Assembly (NCBI GenBank): GCA_000934665.2
Contig: KZ538038.1
Coordinates: 1 to 64,000 of the forward strand
Source of the DNA: Catajapyx aquilonaris
Lineage: Eukaryota
Direction of reading: 5' to 3'
DNA: 64,000 bases
The position numbers and the translations under genes were made by a program. The stretch's first letter is position 1, and each line of letters opens with the position of its first letter. Below, piece after piece: positions 1-29,733 of this stretch. The notes beneath the pieces are model-generated. The model saw only the letters and a list, made by a program, of their open reading frames with translations. It had not been told where the DNA came from and did no database searches.

Positions 1-1448
1 GCACCGTGCCGCTCTTCTCCTTGTTAAGCTTCCTGGCTGCTTGCGATAACCTGTACTCGCACTTTCCGTCAAGCCCCACCAGTATTTTGAGCGCAACTAT
101 CAGGTATGATGCTACAAACGCCTCTGGGCATAGTGCGTGCAGGGACACCTCGTACATTATGGGTCCGTCCCAAACTTGATCAAAGTCCGGTAAGCACCAC
201 AGGACCAATCGTTTGACATATTTTGCCAACTCTGACGGCAGCCGCAAACTGTGCACAACCCTGCGAGAAACTGCGTCCAAATCACGTGGCTTAATTGTAC
301 CCAGCGATGCAAACTGGTGGATGCGAATAGATTCTCGTCGCAATTCCTGACACCCAAGCGACGTAGCACGCAAAACCAGGACGTCTTTCGGCTTCATTTC
401 CATATGCTCGGGTAACAACTGATGAGCCTTTAACGGCAGCCTGCCTTCGAGTGCATAACGAATCAAATCGCAGCTCAGAAGCGTACTTTGCAATTGAGCA
501 AGGGACAAGTTAAGTACAGCGAACACTGTCTTCAAAGTCGCATGCTCAACACTACCCCGCTTGAGCATCCGAGTACTAACACCTTTTTCTCTTAGCTTCT
601 CGTTAATCTCAGCACGATCAGTTTTCTCCTCCTTTACACTTGCGACAGCCTTATGTATTCCCTTCGCTTTTTCCGTCATTTCCACTTCGCGTGTAGGCAC
701 ATCCAACTCGGACGCATCCGTGGTGTCCGATTCCGCACCACTGGTGTCACTCATGTGCGATTCATACATCTTCAACAGCGTGCGCCTCTGAAATAAACAT
801 GCAAATGAGTCTATTGCTACACATCGTCGTTTCGGAGTTGTTCTTACCCTACTGCGACGAGTCCGAGAAAACATCTCGCTGTCCGACTCGGACATATCCG
901 TGTCTGACGTCCGTGGCCGCTTTCTTGATTTACGTGCAACTGGCAGGTTCAGCACAGCCGACACATCCCTCTGCCGCTGCTTGAATGAAAACTTCGGGTC
1001 GACCACTTCCGAGGTGGACGTTGACACGAATGCGACCTCGCTTTCCTGCAGGTACTTGGCCCATATCCCAAAGGCCACCGCAGGCAGCTCCTTGGGCGCT
1101 CCTTCCCCAACCATAATCTCAGCGTAGCTCTTCAGGATCCAGCTGAAGGCTTCCCACGTGGTCCAGTCGCACACACGGCTACCGACTTCACCTGAAGTGG
1201 ACGACCCAGCTGACGGCTTGGAAGGCTTGATCACCGTCTGCTGTCCTCCTGTCGTGTAATCATCCTCCAGCACCTGCTCCAAGAAGAACTACAACACAAA
1301 AAAGGTGAGTACCGGTACAACATTCAACCGCACTCCGGTACCATACCTGCGACTGGGTGCCACATGTGGTGCAGTAGTAGTGCCCCGCATCCAGCACAAC
1401 ATCCGTGTCCCCACACACCGGACACACCTGCCCACCCGATGTCTCCAT
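1..1448 (-). CDS. TAF1B: RNA polymerase I TBP-associated factor subunit B (TAF1B/RRN7), 5' part; runs off the left edge
   Basis: Exons 1448-1347, 1288-848 and 787-<1 with GT-AG introns. N-terminal zinc ribbon CPVC..GHYYCTTCGTQSQ, then WTTWEAFSWILKS, IWAKYLQESEVAF and LLSCDLIRYALEGRLP, all resembling TAF1B/RRN7. Confidence 0.85.
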
Positions 1449-1733: not shown

Positions 1734-2544
1734 ATGGGGCTGTTCGGTAAGAGTCCGCAGCGTGACCCGAAGGAGCAGGTGAACGAATGGCTGCACAAGC
1801 TGAGGAAAGAGGGGTTCCAACTGGACAGGCAGATTAGAGGTGATGTCGTTGTCCGCAACACTGACTGGTTATTAAATAATTTCATTTTTTAAATTACTAA
1901 TTGCAGCCATACAGAGGGAGGAGGAGAAGGTGAAGAGGTCGATGAAGGAGGCTGCCAAGAAGGGCGACAAGGCCGTCTGCACGGTGCTGGCGAAGGAGGT
2001 CATCCGAGCGAGGAAGGCCATCACTAAGATATACACCTCCAAAGCGCACATGAACTCTGTGCAGCTCCAGATGAAGCAGCAGCTGGCCACGCTCAGGGTC
2101 GCAGGGTCGCTCCAGAAGTCAACGGAGGTCATGAAGGCAATGCAGACGCTGATCAAGGTTCCGGAAGTGGCCGCCACCATGAGGGACATGTCGAAAGAGA
2201 TGATGCGGATGGGAATCATAGAGGAGATGCTGGAGGACACCTTCGAGGGACTGGAGGACCAGGATGAGCTGGAGGAGGAGGCGCAGGAGGAGGTCGACAA
2301 GGTACGTCATAATTACTGCTAATATTCTGCAGGTTTGTAATCTGCCCATTACATACAGGTCCTGTGGGAGTTGACTGCCGGACAGATCGGAACGGCGCCG
2401 GAAGTGGAAAAGAACCCGCCGTCCGGAGCAGAAGCCGTTGCCCCAGCCCCCGTCCCATCCTCATCGTCAGCAGCGGTTGAGAGCGAAGAGGAAGAGGAGG
2501 AGCTGGAAGATATGCAGTCGAGGCTCCAGGCACTCAGAAGCTAG
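1734..2544 (+). CDS. CHMP3: Charged multivesicular body protein 3 (ESCRT-III VPS24), ~228 aa
   Basis: Exons 1734-1839, 1907-2301 and 2359-2544 join in frame. MGLFGKSPQRDPKEQVNEW...SKAHMNSVQLQMKQQLATLRVAGSLQKSTEVMKAM...MQSRLQALRS is a classic VPS24/CHMP3 sequence. Confidence 0.97.
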
Positions 2545-4955: not shown

Positions 4956-6683
4956 ATGGCAGCGTGTTGGGTCATCCTCTTGTTGGTGGTGGTGGTCCAG
5001 TCGGTTTTAGGGGAACCGGCGGTGGACCGGACATTCTTCAGCTGGTTCGGAGGATCCAACGAGAAGCAGCCGTCCACATTGGCCCTTGTCCCGTCGTCCC
5101 ACCAGCAGATCTACCCTCCCAACGGCGGCGGTGTCTCTCCAGGAGGAGGAACCGGCTGTCCATTCGCAAACGCCTGGCCTGCCCTCCAGCTGCACTACCA
5201 GCTGCCGTCTCCTCCAACACCATTCGCCCTAACACCACCGCCTCCAGCAGCCAGCGTCCCAACAACCACAACCACAACAACAACGACCACCACCAATCCT
5301 CCGACCACCACCTACGTTCCTCCACAACCTCCAGCCAACCTGGTCAGATGTCCTCTGGTCGGAATCAGTCCAGCAGCCATGGCTGGACCAATGCTGATCC
5401 CTCAAAGACCATCCGGAGACTACCAAGGTTAGGGCGATGGGACATACCGACAAACTTTCCCTTACATAAGACAGGTTTAACTACTCTCAGTAGTCTGAAA
5501 ATGGGATAGGCAGCCTGTGGACATAGTACTCACTGCTTTTCATTTCCAGAGGAGCCGACCGGTTGGTCATCGTCTGGTCCGGGGTCATGGTCCGGTCCTG
5601 GAGGCTTCAGAGGACCACCTTGCAACATCCTCCAGCTGCTGGACCATCCCGAGTTGTCTCAGGTGCGATCGCTGGTGAGACAAGCCGCTCTTGAGGATAT
5701 GTTTGCGTCACCAGGTACTGTACATGACATATCATGGCTATAAGAGATCTGACCTCAAGTGTTGGCGACATTTCACAGGGAACATGACCTTCCTGGCTCC
5801 TGTGGACTCTGCGTTTCTGAAGCTTCCTCGAACAGTGATGGCCACCCTTCAGAGCAGCCTGAGCATGAGTCGCGCCCTGCTTCTCTCACACATGATACCC
5901 GGAATTGTCTCCCTCAACAACCTTTACAACGAGCAGCTGCTGACCACCTCTCGTCCGGGGTCACCGCCAGTCAGGGTCAACGTCTACCGACTGGCAGGAA
6001 GCGAGGTCAGTCCCCCGCATCTTAACATCCCAAAACCCATCAAGTAACACTGACCACTTTCAGCCCGTGTCGCTGACCCTGAATGGAGTGAGGGTCATCC
6101 TGGCCGAGGTCAAAGGGTCAAACGGTCAGCTGTACCTTCTGGAGGACGTGGTTCCGACCATGCCCAGCAAGACCATCGCGGACCACCTGGCCGACGCCAC
6201 ATTGTTCGGAGGCTTCTCCACCGCCGTGTTGGCCGCTGACCTCCAGGGTCTTCTGCAAGGTCGAAGCCCTTTGACCCTATTCGCCCCAACGCCACAGGCA
6301 TTCGAGGCATTCCGGATCGGCAACTCCGACGTCCTTCTGGGCAACACCACCGCCGTACAAGGTTAGTCCACGTTTCGTACGGTTCCATCAAGCAGCTGAC
6401 CTTTGACCCTATTGCAGAGTTTGTCTATTACCACCTGGTGGCTGGCACCCACCACAGCAGTGGTCTGATGGACGGTGCTCTGCTGCCATCACTCCTGAAC
6501 GGCACCGAAATGAGGTGCCATGTCACCATCGACGGCTTCTCCCGTCGCTTGGCCCGTGTCAACGGAAACATCCTGGTGGTCAAAGGCGACATCCTGGCAC
6601 TGAACGGTGTCATCCACATCGTCGACAAGGTCCTCGACCCTGCTCCAGAGGCCCTTCTCAGGGGGCTCCCAACCTACTGGTAA
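4956..6683 (+). CDS. Secreted fasciclin (FAS1)-domain protein with a Pro/Thr-rich N-terminal region, ~475 aa
   Basis: Exons 4956-5427, 5550-5714, 5779-6005, 6064-6361 and 6418-6683 (1428 nt, in frame). Signal peptide MAACWVILLLVVVVQSVLG and a poly-Thr/Pro tract. FAS1 motifs TFLAPVDSAF, NGQLYLLEDV, TLFAPTPQAF, YHLV and NGVIHIVDKVL indicate two FAS1 domains. Confidence 0.88.
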
Positions 6684-6888: not shown

Positions 6889-8186
6889 TTATTGCCTGGC
6901 TGAGTTTGGCACTATGACCACTCCCTTCAGCGTTGGGTCAGCCTCCTGCTGCTTCATGTCCTCCTTGCCCCACTTGATCCTCTCCTTCTCCTTCCTCTCC
7001 AGCTCTATGGTCTCCTCGTCAGTCACCAGGAACAGCCGGATCAGGAATCGGACAGGTGCCCACTGCCTGATTGTCTCCAAGAACGGGATTGACCTCTTCC
7101 CCTTCAGCCCTGTAGGTGACCTCTCCACTTTCTCCCACAGGCTCATCAGGTCCTATATACGCGACAATACTAATAGGCCCTTGATGGTCATCAGTACACT
7201 CACTATGTACTGACCTTCCTGTCGTAGTCTGGCTGCTGCGTGTTCATCATGTAAGCGTTCAGGAGTCCTTTGTAATTGTCGAAAAAGTGCTTCTGTTTCC
7301 TTTTGGCGTCCTCCTCCACCTGCATCATCTCCAGCCTCCTCTGCTCGTCTATGCAGGCCACAGTGAACAGCTACAACCACACTCACGAGTGATCAGCGAA
7401 CTATATGCATCCCAAGTAGCACACGAATATCCCTGGAAAATCCCATGGATATCCAAATATCCGGTGGATATCCATGAGATTTTCCAGGGACGTCCGCTGG
7501 ATATTTGGATATCCATGGGATTTTCCAGGGATATTCGTGCTACTTTGGGGGCAGGAAGGGTTGACCTTATCTTTACCTTGAACTCTTCATAGTCCAGCAC
7601 TTGGTCTCCGCTGATGTCAAACTCGTTGAAGATGGATTCGACCGCATTTTTGTAGAAGCTGAACAGGAATCCGGTGCTGGTGAACTCTCCGCAGGACACT
7701 GTCCCGGACGCGTCCAGATCCAGAAGCATGAACACCACCTTGGCATGCCTGTAGATAAACTCCTTCTCGCGATGCTCCTATACAAAAAAAAAAAGGAGGG
7801 TCAAAATGGTGCCAGAAAAATGACATATCCACTGTGTACCTTGACAGCCACCAAGATACAGGCCATCAGATAAAACTCGTTGAAATCTACTTCCCCGGAT
7901 CGATCAGCATCTAAAAAATTGAACACCGCGTAGATCTGGCTCTTGGACAAATCCGTAAAATGCTCCAGAAACTTCCACACTATTATATCTGGAGCAAAAA
8001 TGGGAATTAATATTTAGGTCAATTTTCCTCTCCCTATTGGAATTAGTACGAACCGTTGAGAGAGTTGTTTTCGTGCAGATCCAGTATGTTAAATATCTCC
8101 AGGATGACCCTGGCTTGCTTCAGGTTCAGCAGGGTGTGCCTCTCGTTCAGGGTCATCGACTTCAGAATATTAGAATTCACCTTCAT
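6889..8186 (-). CDS. EFCAB9: EF-hand calcium-binding protein, EFCAB9-like, ~300 aa
   Basis: Exons 8186-8054, 7988-7840, 7777-7577, 7370-7215 and 7152-6889 (903 nt, in frame). The segments ILDLHENNSLND, FLEHFTDLSKSQIYAVFNFLDADRSGEVDFNEFYLMACILVA, EFIYRHAKVVFMLLDLD and IFNEFDISGDQVLDYEEFKLFT are colinear with EFCAB9 as I recall it. Confidence 0.8.
7411..7549. mobile_element. Foldback/MITE-like palindromic element in intron 3 of the EFCAB9-like gene
   Basis: Near-perfect ~55-bp inverted arms (cccaagtagcac..gaatatccctggaaaatcccatggatatccaaatatcc and its reverse complement) with internal GGATATCC sub-repeats. It enlarges this intron to 206 nt against ~60 nt for the others. Confidence 0.75.
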
Positions 8187-14000: not shown

Positions 14001-15972
14001 TTGTTAGATTGTCTCCATTGCCTAGTACAATCAGCTATCACTTACCTTTTCAGGTAATTGCAATACTTGGAAAGTTCTGGCATGACCTCTTCAATGGCTT
14101 GTTCTCCCTCCTTTTTGCACAGGCACTCGCACAGGACCCTCCAGTACAGTGCGTTTTCTGGGCATAGTTCTTCCTTGGGAATCAGCTTCGTTGCAGGATC
14201 CAACAAGTTAAATTTTTCCAGCAGCTCTTTCGTTGGCACACGCCTAAGCATATAATAATGGAAAACTACGATTACGTCTGCCACAACAGCAAGCAGTAAC
14301 AGAACAGGACGACATCAGACATAAACAATGCAATTTTAAAAATTCAAGCAGGACAAGTGCTGGAACATGCTTTTAATTTGTCAGTAACTACCACAAATCC
14401 AGCAACATTTGGTACGCAATAATAAAATCACAATTAATTCTGCCAAAATCACATTTACCTTGCAAGACAATAAGAGTGATTAGCAAGACTCACATCAAAA
14501 TGGCGTTGAGAACGAGGACCCCAACTTCAGTGTTGATGTCCACACGAAAGCCCTCCAAAAATTGCACAATGTTGTCATTAAAGATGCGAAGCCAAGCCGG
14601 AATCAGTTCCACCTCCACAGTCTTACGCACATTCTCAACTGGAAGGCAATAAAATATTAGTCAGTATCTCTCAAAGTCTAACAATCACTCACATTGCGCA
14701 CTACATGCACACAAACACACTCATCTACACACAAAAGCAATAAAAATATTACCAGGATCTTTAAGTCCTTCCTTGAGCAGCCTGTTTCTTGAAGAGATGG
14801 TGAGTGCCCTGAAGTGCACCTTTTTGGATATGAAGGTGAAGGCCTTGCACCTAATTGCGTCACTTGTGTCCCTAGTGCGATCTACAACATGCGGAAGGGC
14901 ACGGACAGTGGCCACCAAGCACGTCAAGATAGCCGTGCGAACTTCAACACTTGGATCATTGCTTAGGTGGAACAAGTACTGCGTGGTAACCGGGCAATCT
15001 CTGTCGCTCGGAATCTGCAGGCGTCTCAAGGCTAAGGCGGCCTTCGCACGGACAGAAGCCACCTATTGGTAAAGAATATACAATGAAGTAACTGCAGCAT
15101 AAAATGATACGTTACGTTCTCGAGTGTGGGTCATTAAGAGCTCATATTAAAATCAGGATAAAAGTGTCCCCGAAGGGAACGGAGCAAGATCAGTCTAGAA
15201 CACAAGTTACTAATCCTATGTGAATGACACGGATCGATCACTTGTCCTGAATTGACTGCTGATCAGCTCTAATGCCATAAGCTGCTAGTTACATTACAGA
15301 TAATGTTTGGCAGGAATCACAATATATTGCTAGTTGTGATGTCAGTACTATTGAAATACTGAATATTTAGACCATATTTGACCCATACTTGAACCCTACT
15401 TTCATACCTTGTCCTTTAATTTAGTCAGCATCATTTCCACCAGCTGATCGAACAGTTCCGTGTCAAACCCATCACTTTTCGACACATCCAGTAGGCAATT
15501 CGCAATCTCACATGCATGCAAACGCACATGGGTGAGCGTGGAGCGTGACATTTCGCTTAAAAACCAGACCAGTTCCTTCAGAAAAGGAGCCATCAAATCA
15601 TCCGATTCGTCATCCTCTGTGTCCGACTTCTCCTCCTCCTCTTCCTTCATATTCAGGGCAGCAACTTTGGCCACAAATTCCCACAAACACTCTAAACGAG
15701 GATGCTTTTCTTGCTTATTCATCCCGACAGCCAGGTAGAAGAAAACTGACTTTGCAAAGGTAGTCAAGCCAAGCTGAAAAATTTGGGATCTTATCGTAAA
15801 TGGTCGACGTAACACGAAACAAACCCGTTACCGTTGTATAAAGTTTTCTAAGCTTGACGACGAGCTTCGGATGTGTTGCCGCTCCGTCCTGGCATTTCTC
15901 CAGCGCTTCCATTATGCACTGTGAGCCATCTAAAGCCTTCACCACCTCCAGCTTCATCGGCACGTTAATCAT
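11076..15972 (-). CDS. NCAPG: Condensin I complex subunit G (CAP-G), multi-exon HEAT-repeat protein with an acidic/Ser-rich tail
   Basis: First exons are 15972-15832, 15773-15408, 15062-14753 and 14638-14494. Motifs IMEALEKCQ..HPKLVVKLRKLY, DKVASVRAKAALALRRLQ..DCPV..NDPSVEVR, RTRDTSDAIR, LCPENALYWR, SLCKMLL and LGTFF are typical of CAP-G/Cnd3. The stop is at 11076-11078. Confidence 0.93.
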
Positions 15973-16111
15973 GGCTCCTCCACCAGCATGGGCTCAATCG
16001 GGAACAGAATAGTCTTTGGATCCACAACCGGAAGCAGCTCTCTCCAGAACTGATACGAGTTAAAGTCGGCCAGAATTTCCTCGTTGGAACAATCTTCCAG
16101 CTCCTGACAAA

Positions 16112-16182
<71 letters not shown>

Positions 16183-16388
16183 TAAAAATTAATTAAAAAA
16201 GCAATGTATTGTTGTGTTCTTACAGAGTCAGGCTTCTGAGGCGTCTCAAGCTTAGGTATTTTCAATGGAGGCTCCAGATCCAGTTCCCCTGGATGCGTTC
16301 GAATGCAGTAGTTCCTCCAGTCGGGCTGCTTCCGCTTCATCCGCCCTGGCAGCTGGTGGTACCGATGCAGCGACGGCAACACGACCAT
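15969..16388 (-). CDS. Spliced upstream ORF (83-99 aa) with a WRNPLPNID/C9orf40-like motif; its stop overlaps the CAP-G start
   Basis: Exon 16388 (or 16340)-16224, phase-0 GT-AG intron 16223-16104, exon 16103-15969. Product: (MVVLPSLHRYHQLPGR)MKRKQPDWRNYCIRTHPGELDLEPPLKIPKLETPQKPDS|ELEDCSNEEILADFNSYQFWRELLPVVDPKTILFPIEPMLVEEP*. Confidence 0.7.
16114..16182. repeat. (ATT)n microsatellite, ~23 units, inside the uORF intron
   Basis: Directly visible run of att. Confidence 0.97.
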
Positions 16389-16389
16389 G

Positions 16390-16700
16390 CACTGATTCTT
16401 AAGAAAAAAACTGTTCGAAAATTTTGGAATAAGAACTTTTCCGGCTCCTCTTTACTCTTTTTGGCGGCTTCAGAACTACAATAGGCGATTCCAATATGGC
16501 CGACTTGGAAACTGGCCAATCACAGCACGCGTTACATTTCCAGGTTTCAGTTTACATGATCTAGATCCTGGAAGAAGCGCGTCTGTTATTGGCTACCAGG
16601 ACTTGGTGCTGAGATATGATTGGTCAACTTCCTGATAATGGAGTGTGTAAATGAAGGATGCGCAGAAAGGTTGCGCGTGGGTATTTTGCGCGGGAAAATA
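16390..16700 (-). promoter_or_regulatory. Cell-cycle-type promoter for the uORF/CAP-G transcript
   Basis: TCAGT on the - strand at 16395-16391; CCAAT/ATTGG boxes at ~16491, 16516, 16588 and 16619; E2F-like TTTTGGCGGC (~16459) and TTTGCGCGGGAAAA (16685-16698). Confidence 0.55.
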
Positions 16701-16701
16701 T

Positions 16702-16826
16702 GATTGGCACCCTTGGATGTCACGTGACGTTCGATTCGTACACGGATTGGCACCATTGCGTGTCACGTGACGTTCGATTCGAATACGGATTGGCACCCTT
16801 GGATGTCACGTGACGTTCGATTCGAA
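16702..16826. repeat. Minisatellite block A: 3 x 43 bp (GATTGGCACCCTTGGATGTCACGTGACGTTCGATTC..)
   Basis: Units start at 16702, 16745 and 16788. Confidence 0.95.
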
Positions 16827-16831
16827 CGGTC

Positions 16832-17494
16832 GGGACACTTAAACGCACCCAGCCCAAGTGCACCTGGGACGAAACTCCCCCAGCCCAAACGCACCCTGGA
16901 ATGAATGCACTCGGCCCCTACCGCATTCAGCCCAAGTGCACCTGTCCCAATGTCCCCAAGCCAAAAGTCTCCCAGCCTAGCCGCACTTCGGCCCGGCCGC
17001 ATAGGAGCTTTGCTTCACCCGGCAATCCCAGCGATTTCGTCGTCTTTTCTTACGTGAAGATAGGGCTGTATCTGCTGAGAGTGCTGACGATAGGCCTGTA
17101 TCCGCTGAAGATAGGGCTGTATCCGCAAAGAGTGAAGGTTAGGTTTGGTTAGGTTGGGTTAGTACATCGCACTAAGCATACTAAGCATACTAAGCAAAGC
17201 TTCGGTGCGGCTGGGCTGGGAAAATTTGGGCTGGGGGATCTTGGGGCAGGTGCGTTTGGGCTGGGTGCGGCAAAGTCCGGTCGCGTTTGTTGCCGAGTGA
17301 CGCTTAGCCTGGGTGAGTTTAGGCTGGGTGTACTTGGGCCGAGTGCGGCCAAGACCGGGTGTCTTTGTTCCCATATGCTCCTGGGCTGAGTGCGATTAGG
17401 GCTGGTGCGATCGTTACGGGGTGTGCTTGCGCTGGTGAGCTTGGGCCAGGTGTTTTATTTCTCAGATGCGCTTGGGCTGGGTGCGGTTAGGCCT
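16832..17494. mobile_element. Non-autonomous foldback-like insertion (possibly Helentron/HINE-type) interrupting the minisatellite
   Basis: Left arm of short CCCAGCCCAAG/GCACC repeats (16845-17000) is mirrored by inverted CTTGGGCTGGG/GGTGC repeats (17200-17490). The centre has GATAGGGCTGTATC x3, GGTTAGGTTTGGTTAGGTTGGGTTAG and ACTAAGCAT x3. Confidence 0.55.
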
Positions 17495-17512
17495 ACGGTC
17501 CATTCGAACACT

Positions 17513-17750
17513 GATTGGCGCCCTTGGATGCCACGTGACGTTCGATTCTGATTGGCACCCTTGGATGCCACGTGACGTTCGATTCTGATTGGCACCCTTG
17601 GATGCCACGTGACGTTCGATTCTGATTGGCACCCTTGGATGCCACGTGACGTTCGATTCTGATTGGCACCCTTGGATGTCACGTGACGTTCCATTCGAAC
17701 ACGGATTGGCACCCTTGGATGTCACGTGACGTTCGATTCGAACACGGATT
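17513..17750. repeat. Minisatellite block B: 4 x 37 bp + 2 x 43 bp, same unit and orientation as block A
   Basis: Units start at 17513, 17550, 17587, 17624, 17661 and 17704. Confidence 0.95.
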
Positions 17751-18322: not shown

Positions 18323-21300
18323 TCATTTTCTAAAATGCTGCCATTTCTCTATCAATGGCTGTAAACCGTCTTCAACGTCATAAGATTCATTCAGGTAGAC
18401 AACTCGCATCCCTTCGTGGCAGTAGACGTCCACAATGTGCCACTGCTCCAGCAGCTTGAGGCAGTTGCGCACAGACTCCATGCTCAGGGTCTCGCCTGTT
18501 GGAAGGAAATGGTGCTTCAGTGACATGCTTCATCAACAAACTTATCGAAAGCAATACCGTATGGAGCAAGGCCCTTTTCCTGCACCCTCTTGATGTATGC
18601 GAGTATGTCGAGGTGGAGATCCCTCTCCTCACTTTCCCTTCCCACGAGTTCGTCCAGGCTGCAGAGACTCCAATAATACGTGTCCAGGACAGGGCAAAGC
18701 AACTGATGGAGGAAGAGGAGGCGGTCCACCGTATCCTCTTTTAATTCCACCTGCAAGGCAAATTGTCCGATATTATTCGAGGAAATTTTGGTTGGAAATG
18801 TCAAAAGTTGTCATTAGACAAAATGCATTGTACAAAACCTGCCGCACGCAATTTCTGTAATTTCGAGTGTGCACATCCAAGTGCATTTTTCAATTTGGTG
18901 GTTGACGTCAACATTGGTAAACTCATTCAACAGTTTACACAAAATGTACGACTAACTTTACTGGTGAGTACAACACTAATTATGCTACAATTTGTATTGC
19001 TCTTCCCCTAACGTACCTGTAATTGCGGGTCATGCCACTCCTCCTCTTCATCTGAGGAGTCCGAGTCCCACTCAAAACGACGACCTCGTACCACATGATT
19101 TGGCATTTTTAACTGGAAGATATCAAAGCTGCATGACATTGCATGAACATGATAGTGAGTGTAAAACCATCTCTTTACACTTTTGTGCTTCATAGCAGTA
19201 AAATTTTTAGTGTCATAGTTCAACATGGATTAAAAGTGTCGGGATGGTTTTACTGTTCGGCAATCGCTTATCACTGACCAATTTAAGCATGCCAGCTGTA
19301 ATGAACTTCTCCACGACCGCGTTGAAGAGGGAATCAAGCGGGACGCAGGGCTGCACCACCATAAACTCAAACTGCAGTATGGAGCACAGCTCCAGGCAGG
19401 TCCTGACCAGCTCCCCTCTCTTGACCTTTAGGCTGACCATGGCGTCCTTTGACCCGCTGTTCTCCATGTCCGGTGTTCCCCTGTAGCGAACCAGGTCGTC
19501 ACCCAGGTGGTAGTAGATGGCTGTGGCAACAATGGCATCCATGGTGAAGGGAAGGATGGCCGTGTTGGCGTAGTAGGCCAACTCGATAACGTTGGGGAGT
19601 AGCGTCACTGGAGTTATGAGATCATCTGTGCCCTCACGGTCCCTACGGACCAGGCCAGGTCCAAGTAAGGATACCTACAGATGGGGAGGTAAATATCACA
19701 ATGAGGATCGTAAATAATGTCCAAGAATAGTAAGTAGTCTACTCACAGCATAATTGACAACATCCACAGCGTGCCCAGAGAAGCCCACATCCACCTTCTT
19801 GTCAGCCAGCTCAGCCCTCAACTTATCCAGTTCCAGCGCCAGCTTAGGAAGTGACACACCAGAACGGAACTTGTTCAGAAGCAGAAAAGAAATGGCGCTT
19901 GTTGCCATTACGCTGATGCAACGACTGGCATCTGGAAGAAACACAAATGAGGAAAAACTGCCTAGAATTTCACTCTTCCTATGATATTGAAAACATATGG
20001 GACAATGCTCACCGCATATAATATGCCTTGCGAGATTCTCCACCAAGTGCCTCTGTTCCTCTTCGAGAAGCTCAGCCCCGTAAAGAGACGAGTTTGACAA
20101 CGCCAAGTGAAGTCCAATCCTGGGGTTTTGTTCCCCCACTTGAGGCTCAACTCTGCAGAATCCGTTGACTCCCGTTGATATTTCCATGCCTCCTCCTGAT
20201 GCCACTGTTCTTTGGTAAATGTCCACGTACTCCTTCAGGGAGAACGGCTGTCCAAAGTTGACTCGCACGCTGCCGTATCTGGAGCTCAGCACCCGCCATA
20301 TTGACCTCACCGCTCCGAGAAAGGTCTCGGCCCGCTTGGGCTCACCCAGCTGCTCTCCGATGAAGTTGCCTTCAAGTTGTCGGTCATACGTGATGGCCAC
20401 AGGTACCACATAGGCGTCATCTATTATTCCACTAGTGTACGCATCACAGATCACACTGAGAAGCCCACCCTTTGGACGGCATGGCTTTCCAGACCTGCGA
20501 AGGTACATTTTTTGTTAACTTTGACTTACCACTTCAACCGACTATTTTCATTACCTAGTTCGGCTTCCCTCAATAAATATCTCCAGATGGTGCCCTGCCT
20601 TAAGACACTCCTGGATGTAGGAATGCAGCACTGCCCTGTACACCAGATCCCTCTTTCCATCGTAATCCAGCTTCCTCTTGATGTAGAATGCACCCAAGCC
20701 CCTCAGCACAGGGCCGAAGAGAGGTATCTGCAGGTTGTTCCCCGCAGCCACCAGTGGCACACGCAGCTCCTCATTGTACAGGATGAGGGAGATGAGCAGG
20801 TAGTCGAGATGGCTCCGATGAAGAGGCATGTAAATGATGGGCTGCTCAGACGTGGAAGCCCTTCTCAGCATTTCCACCTGGCCCTTGCTGATGACTATGC
20901 TGTTGTGAAGTCGGCACAGCACAGTATGGAGAAGCCAAGAAGCGATGCGGAGCATGAAGGTGCTCGTGGCCGCCTTCATGTTGGAAAGTATCTTGGACGT
21001 ACGCTCTAGCTGCTTCTGGTACAACCGCTTGAAGGTATCCATCCCTTCGTCCAGCACTTGATCTTTCACTTCCTCCTCCACAGATTGGTTCATCGCATTG
21101 CTCACACGCTCATCTTCCAAAACCTTTCAAAAAATTAGTCATTACAGACAGAATTTATGTACGAGTTCATAATGATTGCAGTAATTAATAATAAATGACT
21201 GGTGCTGCTATCAACTTCTCAATCTATCACAAAAATTTTCATATCCTCTGCTTTAAAATTCCAGACCAGCTATTGTAAGCAACTCATCTGACGAGAATGT

Positions 21301-28187: not shown

Positions 28188-29733
28188 ATGCGTATGCTTA
28201 TAGTGCTTCTGATCTTCACGACTGCATGGTGTCAGCCAAGTAAGATTCGATATAATATTCGACATGCTGATTGTACATTTTTTTTAAATAATTATTCCAG
28301 GGGTAGCAGACACGTCAATTTTTCATGCTGCGAAATGGTTGATGTCAACTTTCGAACAGAAGGAAGGTTGGGAAGACAATGCGAGGGCCATCCTGGCCTT
28401 GGGTGTGGGAGAGCATTCCTGGATGGACCCACCTTCTGACCGGATGCTGGCTGGAATCAAAGGGTACGAGATGGAACTTGCCTTGACCCTATGTAACGAG
28501 TCGACCAGAGACGCCATGACCCCAGGTCGGGTCGCACTCAATTCACTGGCCCTCCAGTCAGCATGCTTCGATCCAACCAACTTCCACGGAACGGACCTAA
28601 TTCGTACGTGTACACGCTTTAAAATAATGGTCTAGTGATGTCCAGCATTTGTCTCCAGAGCTTCTCCTGACGGACAAGAACCCTCGGTATGTCTTCGAGT
28701 TTGGACTGGTCACCTTAGCCATCTGCGCTGCTGGACACACTCCGCCGGAGTTGTATGTCGACCGGTTGGTCCAAGACGCCCAGGAGGAACAGTACGGACC
28801 ATCATTCATGGGAGGTAGGAATTTTAAAAAACTTTTCCGCTTTCTTCTGGAACTGACCGGACTATTCGACAGACACATTGTCCGTCGTAATCGTGGCTCT
28901 GCGATGTGTTCAGGACCAGAGTCCGACTCAGGAAGTAGCAGATGCAATCACCAACGGATCATCGACGCTGTTGAAAAGCAGCAAGAGTGACGGCTCTTTC
29001 GGCAACATCTGGACCACGGATTGGGTGGTCCAGGCTCTGATGCTGTCGGGTCACGAGGTCGAGGCCAAGAGGTCACTTCCATTCCTTCTGTCCCATCAGA
29101 ACCAGGACGGTTCCTTCAGCGATGTTCAGGGACAGGAAGGAGACTTGTTCACAACCACTGAGACCATCATGGGATTGGACGCCATCAGGGGCGGACTGGG
29201 GTATCTGAGTCCACGCGACATTCATTGCAACCAGAGGGACAGGAGGTCATCTGCTAACCAGGGTCAACCTCGGGTCAAATTATTCTACGAGACTAGAGTC
29301 GGAACAGTCAACTACGAGTCGAAGGACACGATGTTGCGATTGCCAAACGGAACAACAGCTTTTGATGTCATGCTGGCTGCCTCGAAACAAAACTGTCCAG
29401 ATTTTTGGTAGGTCAATGAGGCCCATTAACACAACCCTGTATAAACATCCCATGTCATTTCAGTTTTGAGTACAAGACCTATCCGGGTATGGGTCACTAC
29501 ATTACTTCGATCGGAGGAGTGGCTGAGAACCAGACTGCCAACACATACTGGTTCGTGTATTACACATTGCCTGGGCAAACAGAACCAATCATTTCACCAG
29601 TCGGTAAGTTCAATTGTGTCACTTGTTAGTGGTGTACATTACGCAATATGTAATTTCTACAGGTGTGGATTTGCTGCAGCTGTATAAACGGTACACTTTG
29701 GTAATGTGGTATCGCACCTGGGATGGCCAGTAG
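28188..29733 (+). CDS. Secreted cobalamin-binding protein family member (transcobalamin/intrinsic factor-like, alpha-barrel plus C-terminal beta domain), ~418 aa
   Basis: Exons 28188-28239, 28301-28603, 28659-28814, 28873-29407, 29464-29603 and 29663-29733 (1257 nt, in frame). Signal peptide; GRVALNSLALQSAC, GLVTLAIC, DTLSVVIVALRC, DGSFGNIWTT..VQAL; C-terminal GTTAFDVM..MGHYITSIGGV....YW..PVGVD. Confidence 0.8.

Follow-up and report, generated by a model that had tools for sequence, protein, structure and literature searches.

Organisation of the locus

The window analysed here is a stretch of 64,000 nucleotides from the genome of Catajapyx aquilonaris (contig KZ538038.1, positions 1 to 64,000). 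On its minus strand a small ORF of two exons, predicted to encode a microprotein, precedes and overlaps the gene for the condensin subunit CAP-G. Read 5' to 3' along that strand, the features are as follows:

16410..16830, minus strand, promoter-like motif cluster 5' of exon 1 (motif matches only)
16341..16388, minus strand, optional N-terminal extension of 16 codons from an upstream in-frame ATG at 16388
16224..16340, minus strand, coding part of microprotein exon 1, 39 codons from the conserved ATG 16340 (MKRKQPDWR...)
16104..16223, minus strand, predicted intron 1, 120 nt, GT..AG, phase 0, 3' end TTGTCAG
15969..16103, minus strand, microprotein exon 2, 44 codons and a TGA stop, ending GAG CCA TGA
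15832..15972, minus strand, start of the CAP-G coding sequence (47 codons), sharing an exon with the microprotein C-terminus
15774..15831, minus strand, CAP-G intron, 58 nt, GTAACG..TTTTCAG, phase 0
15405..15773, minus strand, CAP-G exon, 123 codons, matching human CAP-G residues 56-169 (6igx_B, E 5.5e-5)
14724..15062, minus strand, CAP-G HEAT-repeat exon, matching human CAP-G residues 171-272 (6igx_B, E 3.2e-23)

From ATG 16340 the microprotein ORF comprises 83 codons in two exons. The first exon ends in phase 0 at 16224 and is followed on the minus strand by GTAAGA, and the intron harbours an (ATT)23 microsatellite at 16114-16182. The second exon carries the DFNSYQFWRELLPVVD motif, which lies entirely within it, and the tail EPMLVEEP. 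The TGA stop codon of the microprotein (15971-15969) overlaps the ATG of CAP-G (15972-15970) in the context GCCATGA, and this one exon holds the last 44 codons of the former and the first 47 codons of the latter in different frames. The CAP-G frame does not extend further upstream, since a stop interrupts it at 15996-15994, 7 codons 5' of the ATG. The initial annotation had proposed both a two-exon ORF with a canonical phase-0 intron and an ATGA stop-start overlap with CAP-G; every coordinate of the former checks out and the overlap is present in the sequence at 15972-15969. The splice that removes intron 1 is a prediction which is supported because a contiguous relative, the protein P0007 described below, has the peptides of both flanking exons in order.

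The ATG at 16388 is located 2 nt 3' of a TCAGT. The codon score of the extension that it opens is near zero (+2.9), and in the alignment the first residue of P0007 falls on ATG 16340 and not on 16388. The segment is probably leader rather than coding sequence.

The downstream gene

By homology the downstream gene is condensin I subunit CAP-G (NCAPG / Cnd3 / Ycg1), as the initial annotation had it. In addition to the two stretches of human CAP-G listed above, the 'Condensin complex subunit 3' chain 5oqr_A is matched (E 4.9e-11), Pfam places a HEAT domain (PF02985) in the exon at 14724-15062, and another exon contains Cnd3 (PF12719; 43.3 bits, cutoff 25.8). Since the second CAP-G exon aligns from human residue 56, approximately 50 residues are expected upstream of it; the 47-residue N-terminal piece yields no meaningful PDB match when searched alone. 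Alternative in-frame start codons are located at 15957 and 15912. A word-index protein search with CAP-G exon 3 ('longer' lengths) gave 0 matches, and a metagenome locus scan with a CAP-G exon confirmed 0 of 599. As a condensin CAP-G the protein encoded in the window showed no unusual features, and the oddity of the gene is its putative 5' leader.

Conservation of the microprotein

Relatives were sought with the 44-residue exon-2 peptide alone, using phmmer against 1.84 billion representative proteins. There were five matches at E<=1e-3, of which two are biologically meaningful: P0007, an unnamed protein of 86 aa encoded on a contig of 1485 nt (E 8.7e-5), and P0008, a frog 'uncharacterized protein C9orf40 homolog' (E 3.8e-4, 36.2 bits). 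The matches P0004, P0005 and P0006 were rejected as relatives, each being a tandem-repeat protein with 3-4 short matching stretches; P0005 has no match to PF15017.

P0007 is the single full-length relative found and is matched by both exons in order. Exon 1, which formed no part of the search query, aligns to its residues 1-30, Met1 to Met1, with 18 of 36 positions identical (50%, E 1e-5), and exon 2 is 60% identical to residues 47-86 (E 5e-14), the match ending 2 residues short of the microprotein stop. The codon-usage score, which partly reflects the absence of stops, is +35 bits in the frame of the ORF versus -29 and -33 in the other frames. On these grounds the two-exon ORF can be taken to encode a conserved protein and not to be a chance ORF, and the earlier reading of it as a microprotein ORF is upheld by the ordered match of both exons to P0007 from Met1 onwards.

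Word-index protein searches returned 0 further relatives with exon 2 ('longer' lengths) and P0007 alone when P0007 was the query ('near' lengths). A metagenome locus scan with the four-sequence alignment described in the next section confirmed 0 of 106 pattern matches.

Relationship to C9orf40

An alignment of four sequences, namely the window peptide, P0007 and two frog C9orf40 proteins, contains 11 invariant columns around the motif, including F14, N15, Q18, F19, W20, L24, P25, V27 and D28. The core of the motif in the window is FNSYQFWRELLPVVD, in which the first proline of P-L-P is replaced by leucine, a substitution found in the window sequence only. The likeness to C9orf40 extends beyond the motif: the microprotein has a basic KRK start, a PPLKIPK segment that compares with LPPSKKPR in the frog protein, and an acidic stretch followed by [DE]FNS[YH]QFW[RK]..LP.VD. 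It differs in being about half as long (83 aa versus 146-199 aa), in having one copy of the motif where the two longer frog proteins have two PF15017 stretches each, and in lying within the putative leader of CAP-G rather than forming a stand-alone gene.

The initial annotation had noted a resemblance to the motif of the WRNPLPNID family, taken there to include C9orf40, MLLT11/AF1q and PPP4R1, and had proposed a search against Pfam, which describes the family as 'Putative WW-binding domain and destruction box' (PF15017, gathering cutoff 27 bits). The resemblance to C9orf40 stands, borne out by the frog match and the invariant columns, whereas the Pfam search gives no support: searched separately, the exon-2 peptide (44 aa) and the exon-1 peptide (55 aa) hit 0 families at E<=10, and P0007 scores 20.8 bits (E 7.1e-4), under the cutoff. 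The frog proteins P0008 (36 bits) and P0010 (40.7 bits) pass this threshold and P0009 (21.7 bits) fails. Atlas feature searches, which provide leads only, placed PF15017/C9orf40 clusters at the top for both peptides with scores of 0.87-0.89 (0.89 with 175 of 256 features, the others 0.88, 0.88 and 0.87). As judged from these comparisons the microprotein is C9orf40-like and not a certified member of PF15017.

Promoter-like motifs and polyadenylation signals

The motif cluster 5' of exon 1 consists of five CCAAT boxes on the minus strand (16793-16592), two inverted ones (16516 and 16491), three CACGTG E-boxes, one E2F-type site TTTCCCGC (16697), one GCCATATT site (16500) and a TTCGAA CHR-type site at 16419. 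It may be read as a cell-cycle promoter of the CCAAT/E2F/CHR type. Between 16400 and 15972 the only hits among the motifs scanned are GGGCGG at 16346, TTCGAA at 16303 and an Inr-like TCAGTT at 16053.

AATAAA does not occur on the minus strand between 15975 and 14500, a stretch that covers 1.4 kb past the microprotein stop. The sole ATTAAA in this interval, at 15420, is located 550 nt downstream within a CAP-G exon, and a variant signal, AATAAG, is found at 15719. Rfam gave 0 matches on the whole window.

Four features of the locus speak indirectly for a single transcript, namely the shared exon, the lack of AATAAA past the stop, the confinement of the promoter-like cluster to the region upstream of exon 1, and a leader whose few ATGs, described in the next section, share the microprotein frame and lack a purine at -3. 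Against a single 5' end, the Inr-like TCAGTT and the high AT content of the intron would allow transcription to begin internally.

Upstream AUGs and translation signals

The predicted spliced leader (16520-15973) contains only three ATGs, all in the microprotein frame. ATG 16388 has T at -3 and G at +4, ATG 16340 has C at -3 and A at +4, and ATG 15989 has C at both positions; a purine at -3 is thus absent from all three. The ATG of CAP-G at 15972 has G at -3, and the alternative start at 15912 has A at -3 and G at +4. The observation made at the outset that every leader ATG lies in the uORF frame, two with C at -3 and one close to a TCAGT, is therefore accurate.

The 83-codon ORF contains 0 off-frame ATGs. 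Of 1019 coding chunks taken from the window 3.7% likewise have none, as do 12% of 20000 trials in which codon order was shuffled (P = 0.12), and the absence of off-frame ATGs is weak evidence for leaky scanning.

Stop-start reinitiation is known from calicivirus VP1/VP2, with an AUGA junction and a TURBS element, and from influenza B M1/BM2, with UAAUG. The locus resembles the calicivirus type in that a four-base AUGA overlap joins the upstream stop to the downstream start. It differs in that the upstream ORF lacks the UGGGA motif complementary to 18S rRNA: on the minus strand TGGGA does not occur anywhere from 15969 to 16400, and its closest occurrences are at 15679-15683 and 16945-16949. Another difference is that the gene is cellular; its upstream AUG contexts are at least as compatible with leaky scanning. 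Reinitiation after an ORF of 83 codons is normally inefficient. With the UGGGA motif missing, reinitiation of the TURBS type was discarded as the principal mechanism.

One mRNA or several

The shared exon, its use in different frames and the ATGA junction make one mRNA the most likely arrangement, and the ORFs of the microprotein and CAP-G are probably carried by a single transcript. It is somewhat probable, in our estimate, that the CAP-G unit opens with the conserved C9orf40-like ORF and that one mRNA gives rise to both proteins, with CAP-G being translated by leaky scanning. In this model the CCAAT/E2F/CHR-type promoter 5' of exon 1 would drive an mRNA with both ORFs, and the microprotein would be read from a weak-context AUG. 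CAP-G would be reached mainly by ribosomes scanning past the three same-frame AUGs, whose -3 positions hold U, C and C, with a possible minor contribution from reinitiation where the ORFs overlap in AUGA. The sequence comparisons show the ORF, its conservation and kinship to C9orf40, the shared exon and the AUG contexts; the splice, the use of one transcript and the route by which CAP-G is translated are predictions drawn from them.

A competing possibility, to which we attach distinctly less weight, is that the locus produces two overlapping mRNAs, a long one for the microprotein and a shorter one, with its 5' end in intron 1 or exon 2, mainly for CAP-G. The shorter RNA could arise from an internal promoter or, if the lineage has it, from spliced-leader trans-splicing at 16104; its leader would be no longer than about 130 nt, the 6-codon mini-ORF at 15989 being the only one in it, and the ATGA overlap would be a packing feature and not a device for translational coupling. 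Such an arrangement would suit a compact genome with introns of 58 and 120 nt, and the Inr-like element at 16053 and the AT-rich intron (GC 0.27, 16000-16199) are in keeping with an internal start. It would also spare an essential, abundant protein from a position behind an 83-codon ORF, where it would be poorly translated under standard scanning, and the depletion of off-frame ATGs is not significant by codon shuffling. However, the CCAAT/E2F/E-box cluster is found 5' of exon 1 only, and the interval from exon 1 to the CAP-G start holds no motif hits besides the three listed above. The long RNA would, moreover, still include the CAP-G exons: with no AATAAA for 1.4 kb it therefore keeps them, and a bicistronic RNA would exist either way.

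It is improbable that the microprotein belongs to an independent upstream gene which is polyadenylated soon after its stop, in the first exons or introns of CAP-G, with the CAP-G promoter inside it. Small tandem genes close to a neighbour do occur in compact genomes, and the variant signals AATAAG and ATTAAA are present, but AATAAA is absent throughout the interval scanned, the sole ATTAAA is situated within coding sequence of CAP-G, and polyadenylation there would truncate every read-through CAP-G transcript. Least probable of all is a chance or decaying ORF in the CAP-G 5' UTR, at most a generic inhibitory uORF with an irrelevant peptide: the window peptide has no Pfam match and one full-length relative was found for it, and mouse Ncapg is reported (PMC10962698) to carry translated uORFs, with no conserved peptide claimed in the passage concerned, yet each exon on its own finds its counterpart in P0007, the order is kept, the starts coincide and the ends almost do, the motif columns are invariant across the window, P0007 and the two frog proteins, and the codon score is positive in this frame only.

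Comparison with known systems and possible function

Bicistronic mRNAs with a conserved microprotein ORF upstream are known from animals, examples being MIEF1-MP/MIEF1, ASDURF/ASNSD1, MOCS2A/MOCS2B and SNURF/SNRPN. The locus shares with these a conserved small ORF 5' of the canonical ORF, apparently in one unit, and the weak upstream AUG and scarcity of intervening AUGs that leaky scanning expects. It differs in that its single transcript is predicted here from sequence and in that no published precedent turned up for a C9orf40-like protein paired with CAP-G. The literature search gave nothing on WRNPLPNID or on C9orf40 with a uORF, and nothing relevant on a bicistronic or uORF-bearing NCAPG or on condensin with an upstream microprotein ORF. 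If read as proposed, the locus would be a clean natural case of an essential protein translated behind a conserved 83-codon ORF whose stop overlaps the next start as AUGA. To annotators, the microprotein ORF is an example of a real coding gene that escapes both standard gene finders and word-index homology searches.

The human genes lie apart, C9orf40 by itself on chromosome 9 and NCAPG on chromosome 4. Human C9orf40 is uncharacterised and recurs in S/G2-M co-expression lists (PMC6788831, PMC5217208), and such co-expression fits a linkage to a mitotic condensin gene. The link between a C9orf40-like ORF and the start of CAP-G leads to a testable hypothesis, i.e. a role of this family in mitotic chromosome biology. 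A bolder and unlikely extension is that the C9orf40 family originated as a 5' cistron of the CAP-G mRNA, or remains one in some animal lineages, and that its motif docks on condensin or one of its regulators, the two products being made in a fixed ratio from a single message. If true, this would be the first mechanism assigned to C9orf40, a human cell-cycle gene that is still an orphan. The microprotein itself is probably a disordered nuclear protein acting via the short linear motif FNSYQFWR..LP.VD. In its predicted structure, which is of modest confidence (pLDDT 67.8, pTM 0.24), the exon-2 peptide forms short helices only.

Structure of the upstream ORF and its junction with CAP-G

The CAP-G gene is preceded on the minus strand by a two-exon ORF that starts at ATG 16388, with a second ATG at 16340 in the same frame, and ends in a TGA (15971-15969) which overlaps the CAP-G ATG (15972-15970) in the context GCCATGA. 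Every coordinate of this arrangement in the initial annotation is borne out by the minus-strand sequence and its translations:

16388 or 16340 to 16224, minus strand: upstream ORF exon 1, followed by a GTAAGA donor
16223-16104, minus strand: intron 1, 120 nt, phase 0, GTAAGA donor, TTGTCAG acceptor ending at 16104
16103-15969, minus strand: upstream ORF exon 2, 44-aa peptide, TGA at 15971-15969
15972-15970 (ATG), minus strand: start of the first CAP-G coding segment, 47 codons in a frame different from the upstream ORF, GTAACG donor at 15831

A perfect (ATT)23 microsatellite (16114-16182) takes up over half of intron 1 (120 nt), and variation in its length could influence splicing; the remaining 51 nt or so are near the 58 nt of the following CAP-G intron. 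If intron 1 were retained, the exon-1 frame would stop at 16184-16182 (minus strand), and translation from an intronic ATG at 16114-16112 (minus strand), which shares the frame of exon 2, would yield 48 aa with the motif kept.

Identity of the downstream gene

Homology identifies the gene downstream of the microprotein as condensin CAP-G. Exon 15062-14724 matches residues 171-272 of human CAP-G (6igx_B, E 3.2e-23) as well as the 'Condensin complex subunit 3' chain 5oqr_A (4.9e-11), exon 15773-15405 matches human residues 56-169 (E 5.5e-5), a later exon contains Pfam Cnd3 (43.3 bits), and a HEAT exon is about 50% identical to human CAP-G. Exon 15773-15405 begins near human residue 53, which leaves some 50 residues to be encoded 5' of it, and the 47 codons from ATG 15972 agree with this. 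This 47-aa piece alone has no significant PDB match, and its assignment to CAP-G thus depends on canonical splice sites and a continuous frame. A stop closes the CAP-G frame 7 codons 5' of ATG 15972 and leaves 15972, 15957 and 15912 as the only possible CAP-G starts, all three of which sit in the exon that ends the upstream ORF.

Conservation of the microprotein and its kinship with C9orf40

Comparison with its relatives indicates that the microprotein is real and conserved. A phmmer search with the 44-aa exon-2 peptide against 1.84 billion representative proteins returns five at E<=1e-3 (P0004-P0008). P0004-P0006 are set aside as tandem-repeat proteins matched in several short stretches; P0005 (209 aa), probably a translated repeat, has units with SQFWRNMMPVNSEE that superficially resemble the QFWR..LP motif, and no PF15017 match. 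P0007 is an 86-aa protein from one 1485-nt Logan contig with 62% identity over the best-scoring stretch, and P0008 is a frog protein named 'uncharacterized protein C9orf40 homolog'. Exon 1, which played no part in the search that found P0007, aligns from ATG 16340 with its residues 1-30, Met1 to Met1 (18/36 identical, E 1e-5), and exon 2 with residues 47-86 (24/40 identical, E 5e-14), the alignment ending two residues short of the window ORF's stop. That a single contiguous protein holds both exon peptides in order supports the splice, places the start at 16340 and not at 16388, and shows near-conservation of the stop. Scored by codon usage, with 1766 codons from neighbouring exons as the training set, the ORF frame gets +35 bits, a value partly due to the absence of stops, against -29 and -33 in the other two frames. 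The last six residues common to P0007, EPMLVE (15969-15992, minus strand), are identical and the stretch before them is more variable; their codons occupy positions -21 to -1 relative to the CAP-G start and may therefore be doubly constrained.

The peptide had been likened at the outset to the WRNPLPNID/C9orf40 family; its sequence supports kinship with C9orf40, but the Pfam threshold does not. Neither exon peptide matches any Pfam family at E<=10, and P0007 matches PF15017 (WRNPLPNID) at E 7.1e-4 and 20.8 bits, below the cutoff of 27; among frog proteins, P0008 (36 bits) and P0010 (40.7 bits) lie above this cutoff and P0009 (21.7 bits) below it. The kinship is supported by the match to the frog homolog and by a four-sequence alignment (window peptide, P0007, two frog proteins), where nine of the 11 invariant columns fall in the core FN..QFW...LP.VD; the first proline of P-L-P is replaced by leucine in the window peptide only, and this peptide and its relatives further correspond in their N-terminal KRK and proline-lysine segments. 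PF15017/C9orf40 clusters come top for both peptides in Atlas feature searches, whose scores (0.89 with 175/256 features, then 0.88, 0.88 and 0.87) count as leads only. The microprotein is therefore named C9orf40-like, not a Pfam-certified member, and sequence likeness supports its reading as a short, single-motif, divergent C9orf40 relative. A structure prediction for the exon-2 peptide yields just short helices across the motif, with modest confidence (pLDDT 67.8, pTM 0.24); it is compatible with a short-linear-motif protein and proves nothing.

Human C9orf40 is listed as one of the uncharacterised genes co-expressed in S/G2-M, and its signal may be peri-centrosomal (PMC6788831); its co-expression with cell-cycle genes has been confirmed (PMC5217208). 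The literature search returned no mention of WRNPLPNID and no link of C9orf40 to a uORF.

Transcription and translation of the two ORFs

The best-supported reading, which we infer from sequence features, is one bicistronic transcript encoding the microprotein and CAP-G, the latter being reached by leaky scanning. The microprotein C-terminus and the first CAP-G codons share an exon. No AATAAA occurs on the minus strand between 15975 and 14500, where the sole ATTAAA (15420) is inside a CAP-G exon, so RNA encoding the microprotein should continue into CAP-G. The promoter-like motifs are gathered upstream of exon 1:

16830-16410: five CCAAT and two inverted, three CACGTG, an E2F-type TTTCCCGC, a GCCATATT site and a CHR-type TTCGAA

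The combination of CCAAT, CACGTG, E2F-type and CHR-type motifs is one that characterises cell-cycle genes, condensin subunits among them. Against a single transcript, an Inr-like TCAGTT lies at 16053 and intron 1 is AT-rich; CAP-G RNA may instead arise by internal initiation or by trans-splicing at the 16104 acceptor.

On a bicistronic transcript, the spliced leader (16520-15973) has only three ATGs, all in the frame of the upstream ORF as initially annotated, and all in poor contexts: 16388 (U at -3, G at +4, close to a TCAGT that may mark a start), 16340 (C at -3, A at +4) and 15989 (C at both). The CAP-G AUG 15972 has G at -3, and AUG 15912 has A at -3 and G at +4. These weak upstream contexts, together with the lack, within the upstream ORF, of the UGGGA motif known from viral reinitiation, favour leaky scanning, in which scanning ribosomes would pass the upstream AUGs and reach that of CAP-G; reinitiation at AUGA would be a possible minor route. 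The 83-codon ORF contains zero off-frame AUGs, a rarity among coding chunks of the window (3.7% of 1019) but reached by 12% of 20000 codon-order shuffles, which is suggestive, not significant. Among the literature matches listed, no such arrangement is found for NCAPG as bicistronic or with a uORF, nor for condensin with an upstream ORF and microprotein. Translated uORFs are reported on mouse Ncapg mRNA, in passages that describe no peptide (PMC10962698).

Genomic surroundings

The region is gene-dense, with compact genes and short introns, and Pfam identifies the following ORFs:

2-1288, minus strand: Rrn7/TAF1B
1876-2319, plus strand: Snf7 (CHMP-type)
5944-6680, plus strand: Fasciclin
7352-7777, minus strand: EF-hand
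19216-21126, minus strand: glycerol-3-phosphate acyltransferase (Acyltransferase + GPAT_C)
28857-29408, plus strand: eukaryotic cobalamin-binding protein

The whole window has no Rfam match at gathering score, a GC content of 0.44, a CpG observed/expected ratio of 0.77 and one N. Taken with the compact genes, the short introns and the identity of about 50% to human CAP-G in a HEAT exon, this CpG ratio would, as a guess, point to an animal outside the vertebrates. Two tandem arrays lie within the 2.6-kb gap from the GPAT-like gene to the microprotein/CAP-G unit:

16702-16827: 43 bp x 2.9 copies
17511-17739: 37 bp x 6 copies

Their units are related, each with a CCAAT box (ATTGG on the plus strand) and a palindromic GTCACGTGAC E-box, and the arrays may serve as promoter or enhancer, or be merely a satellite confined to this locus.
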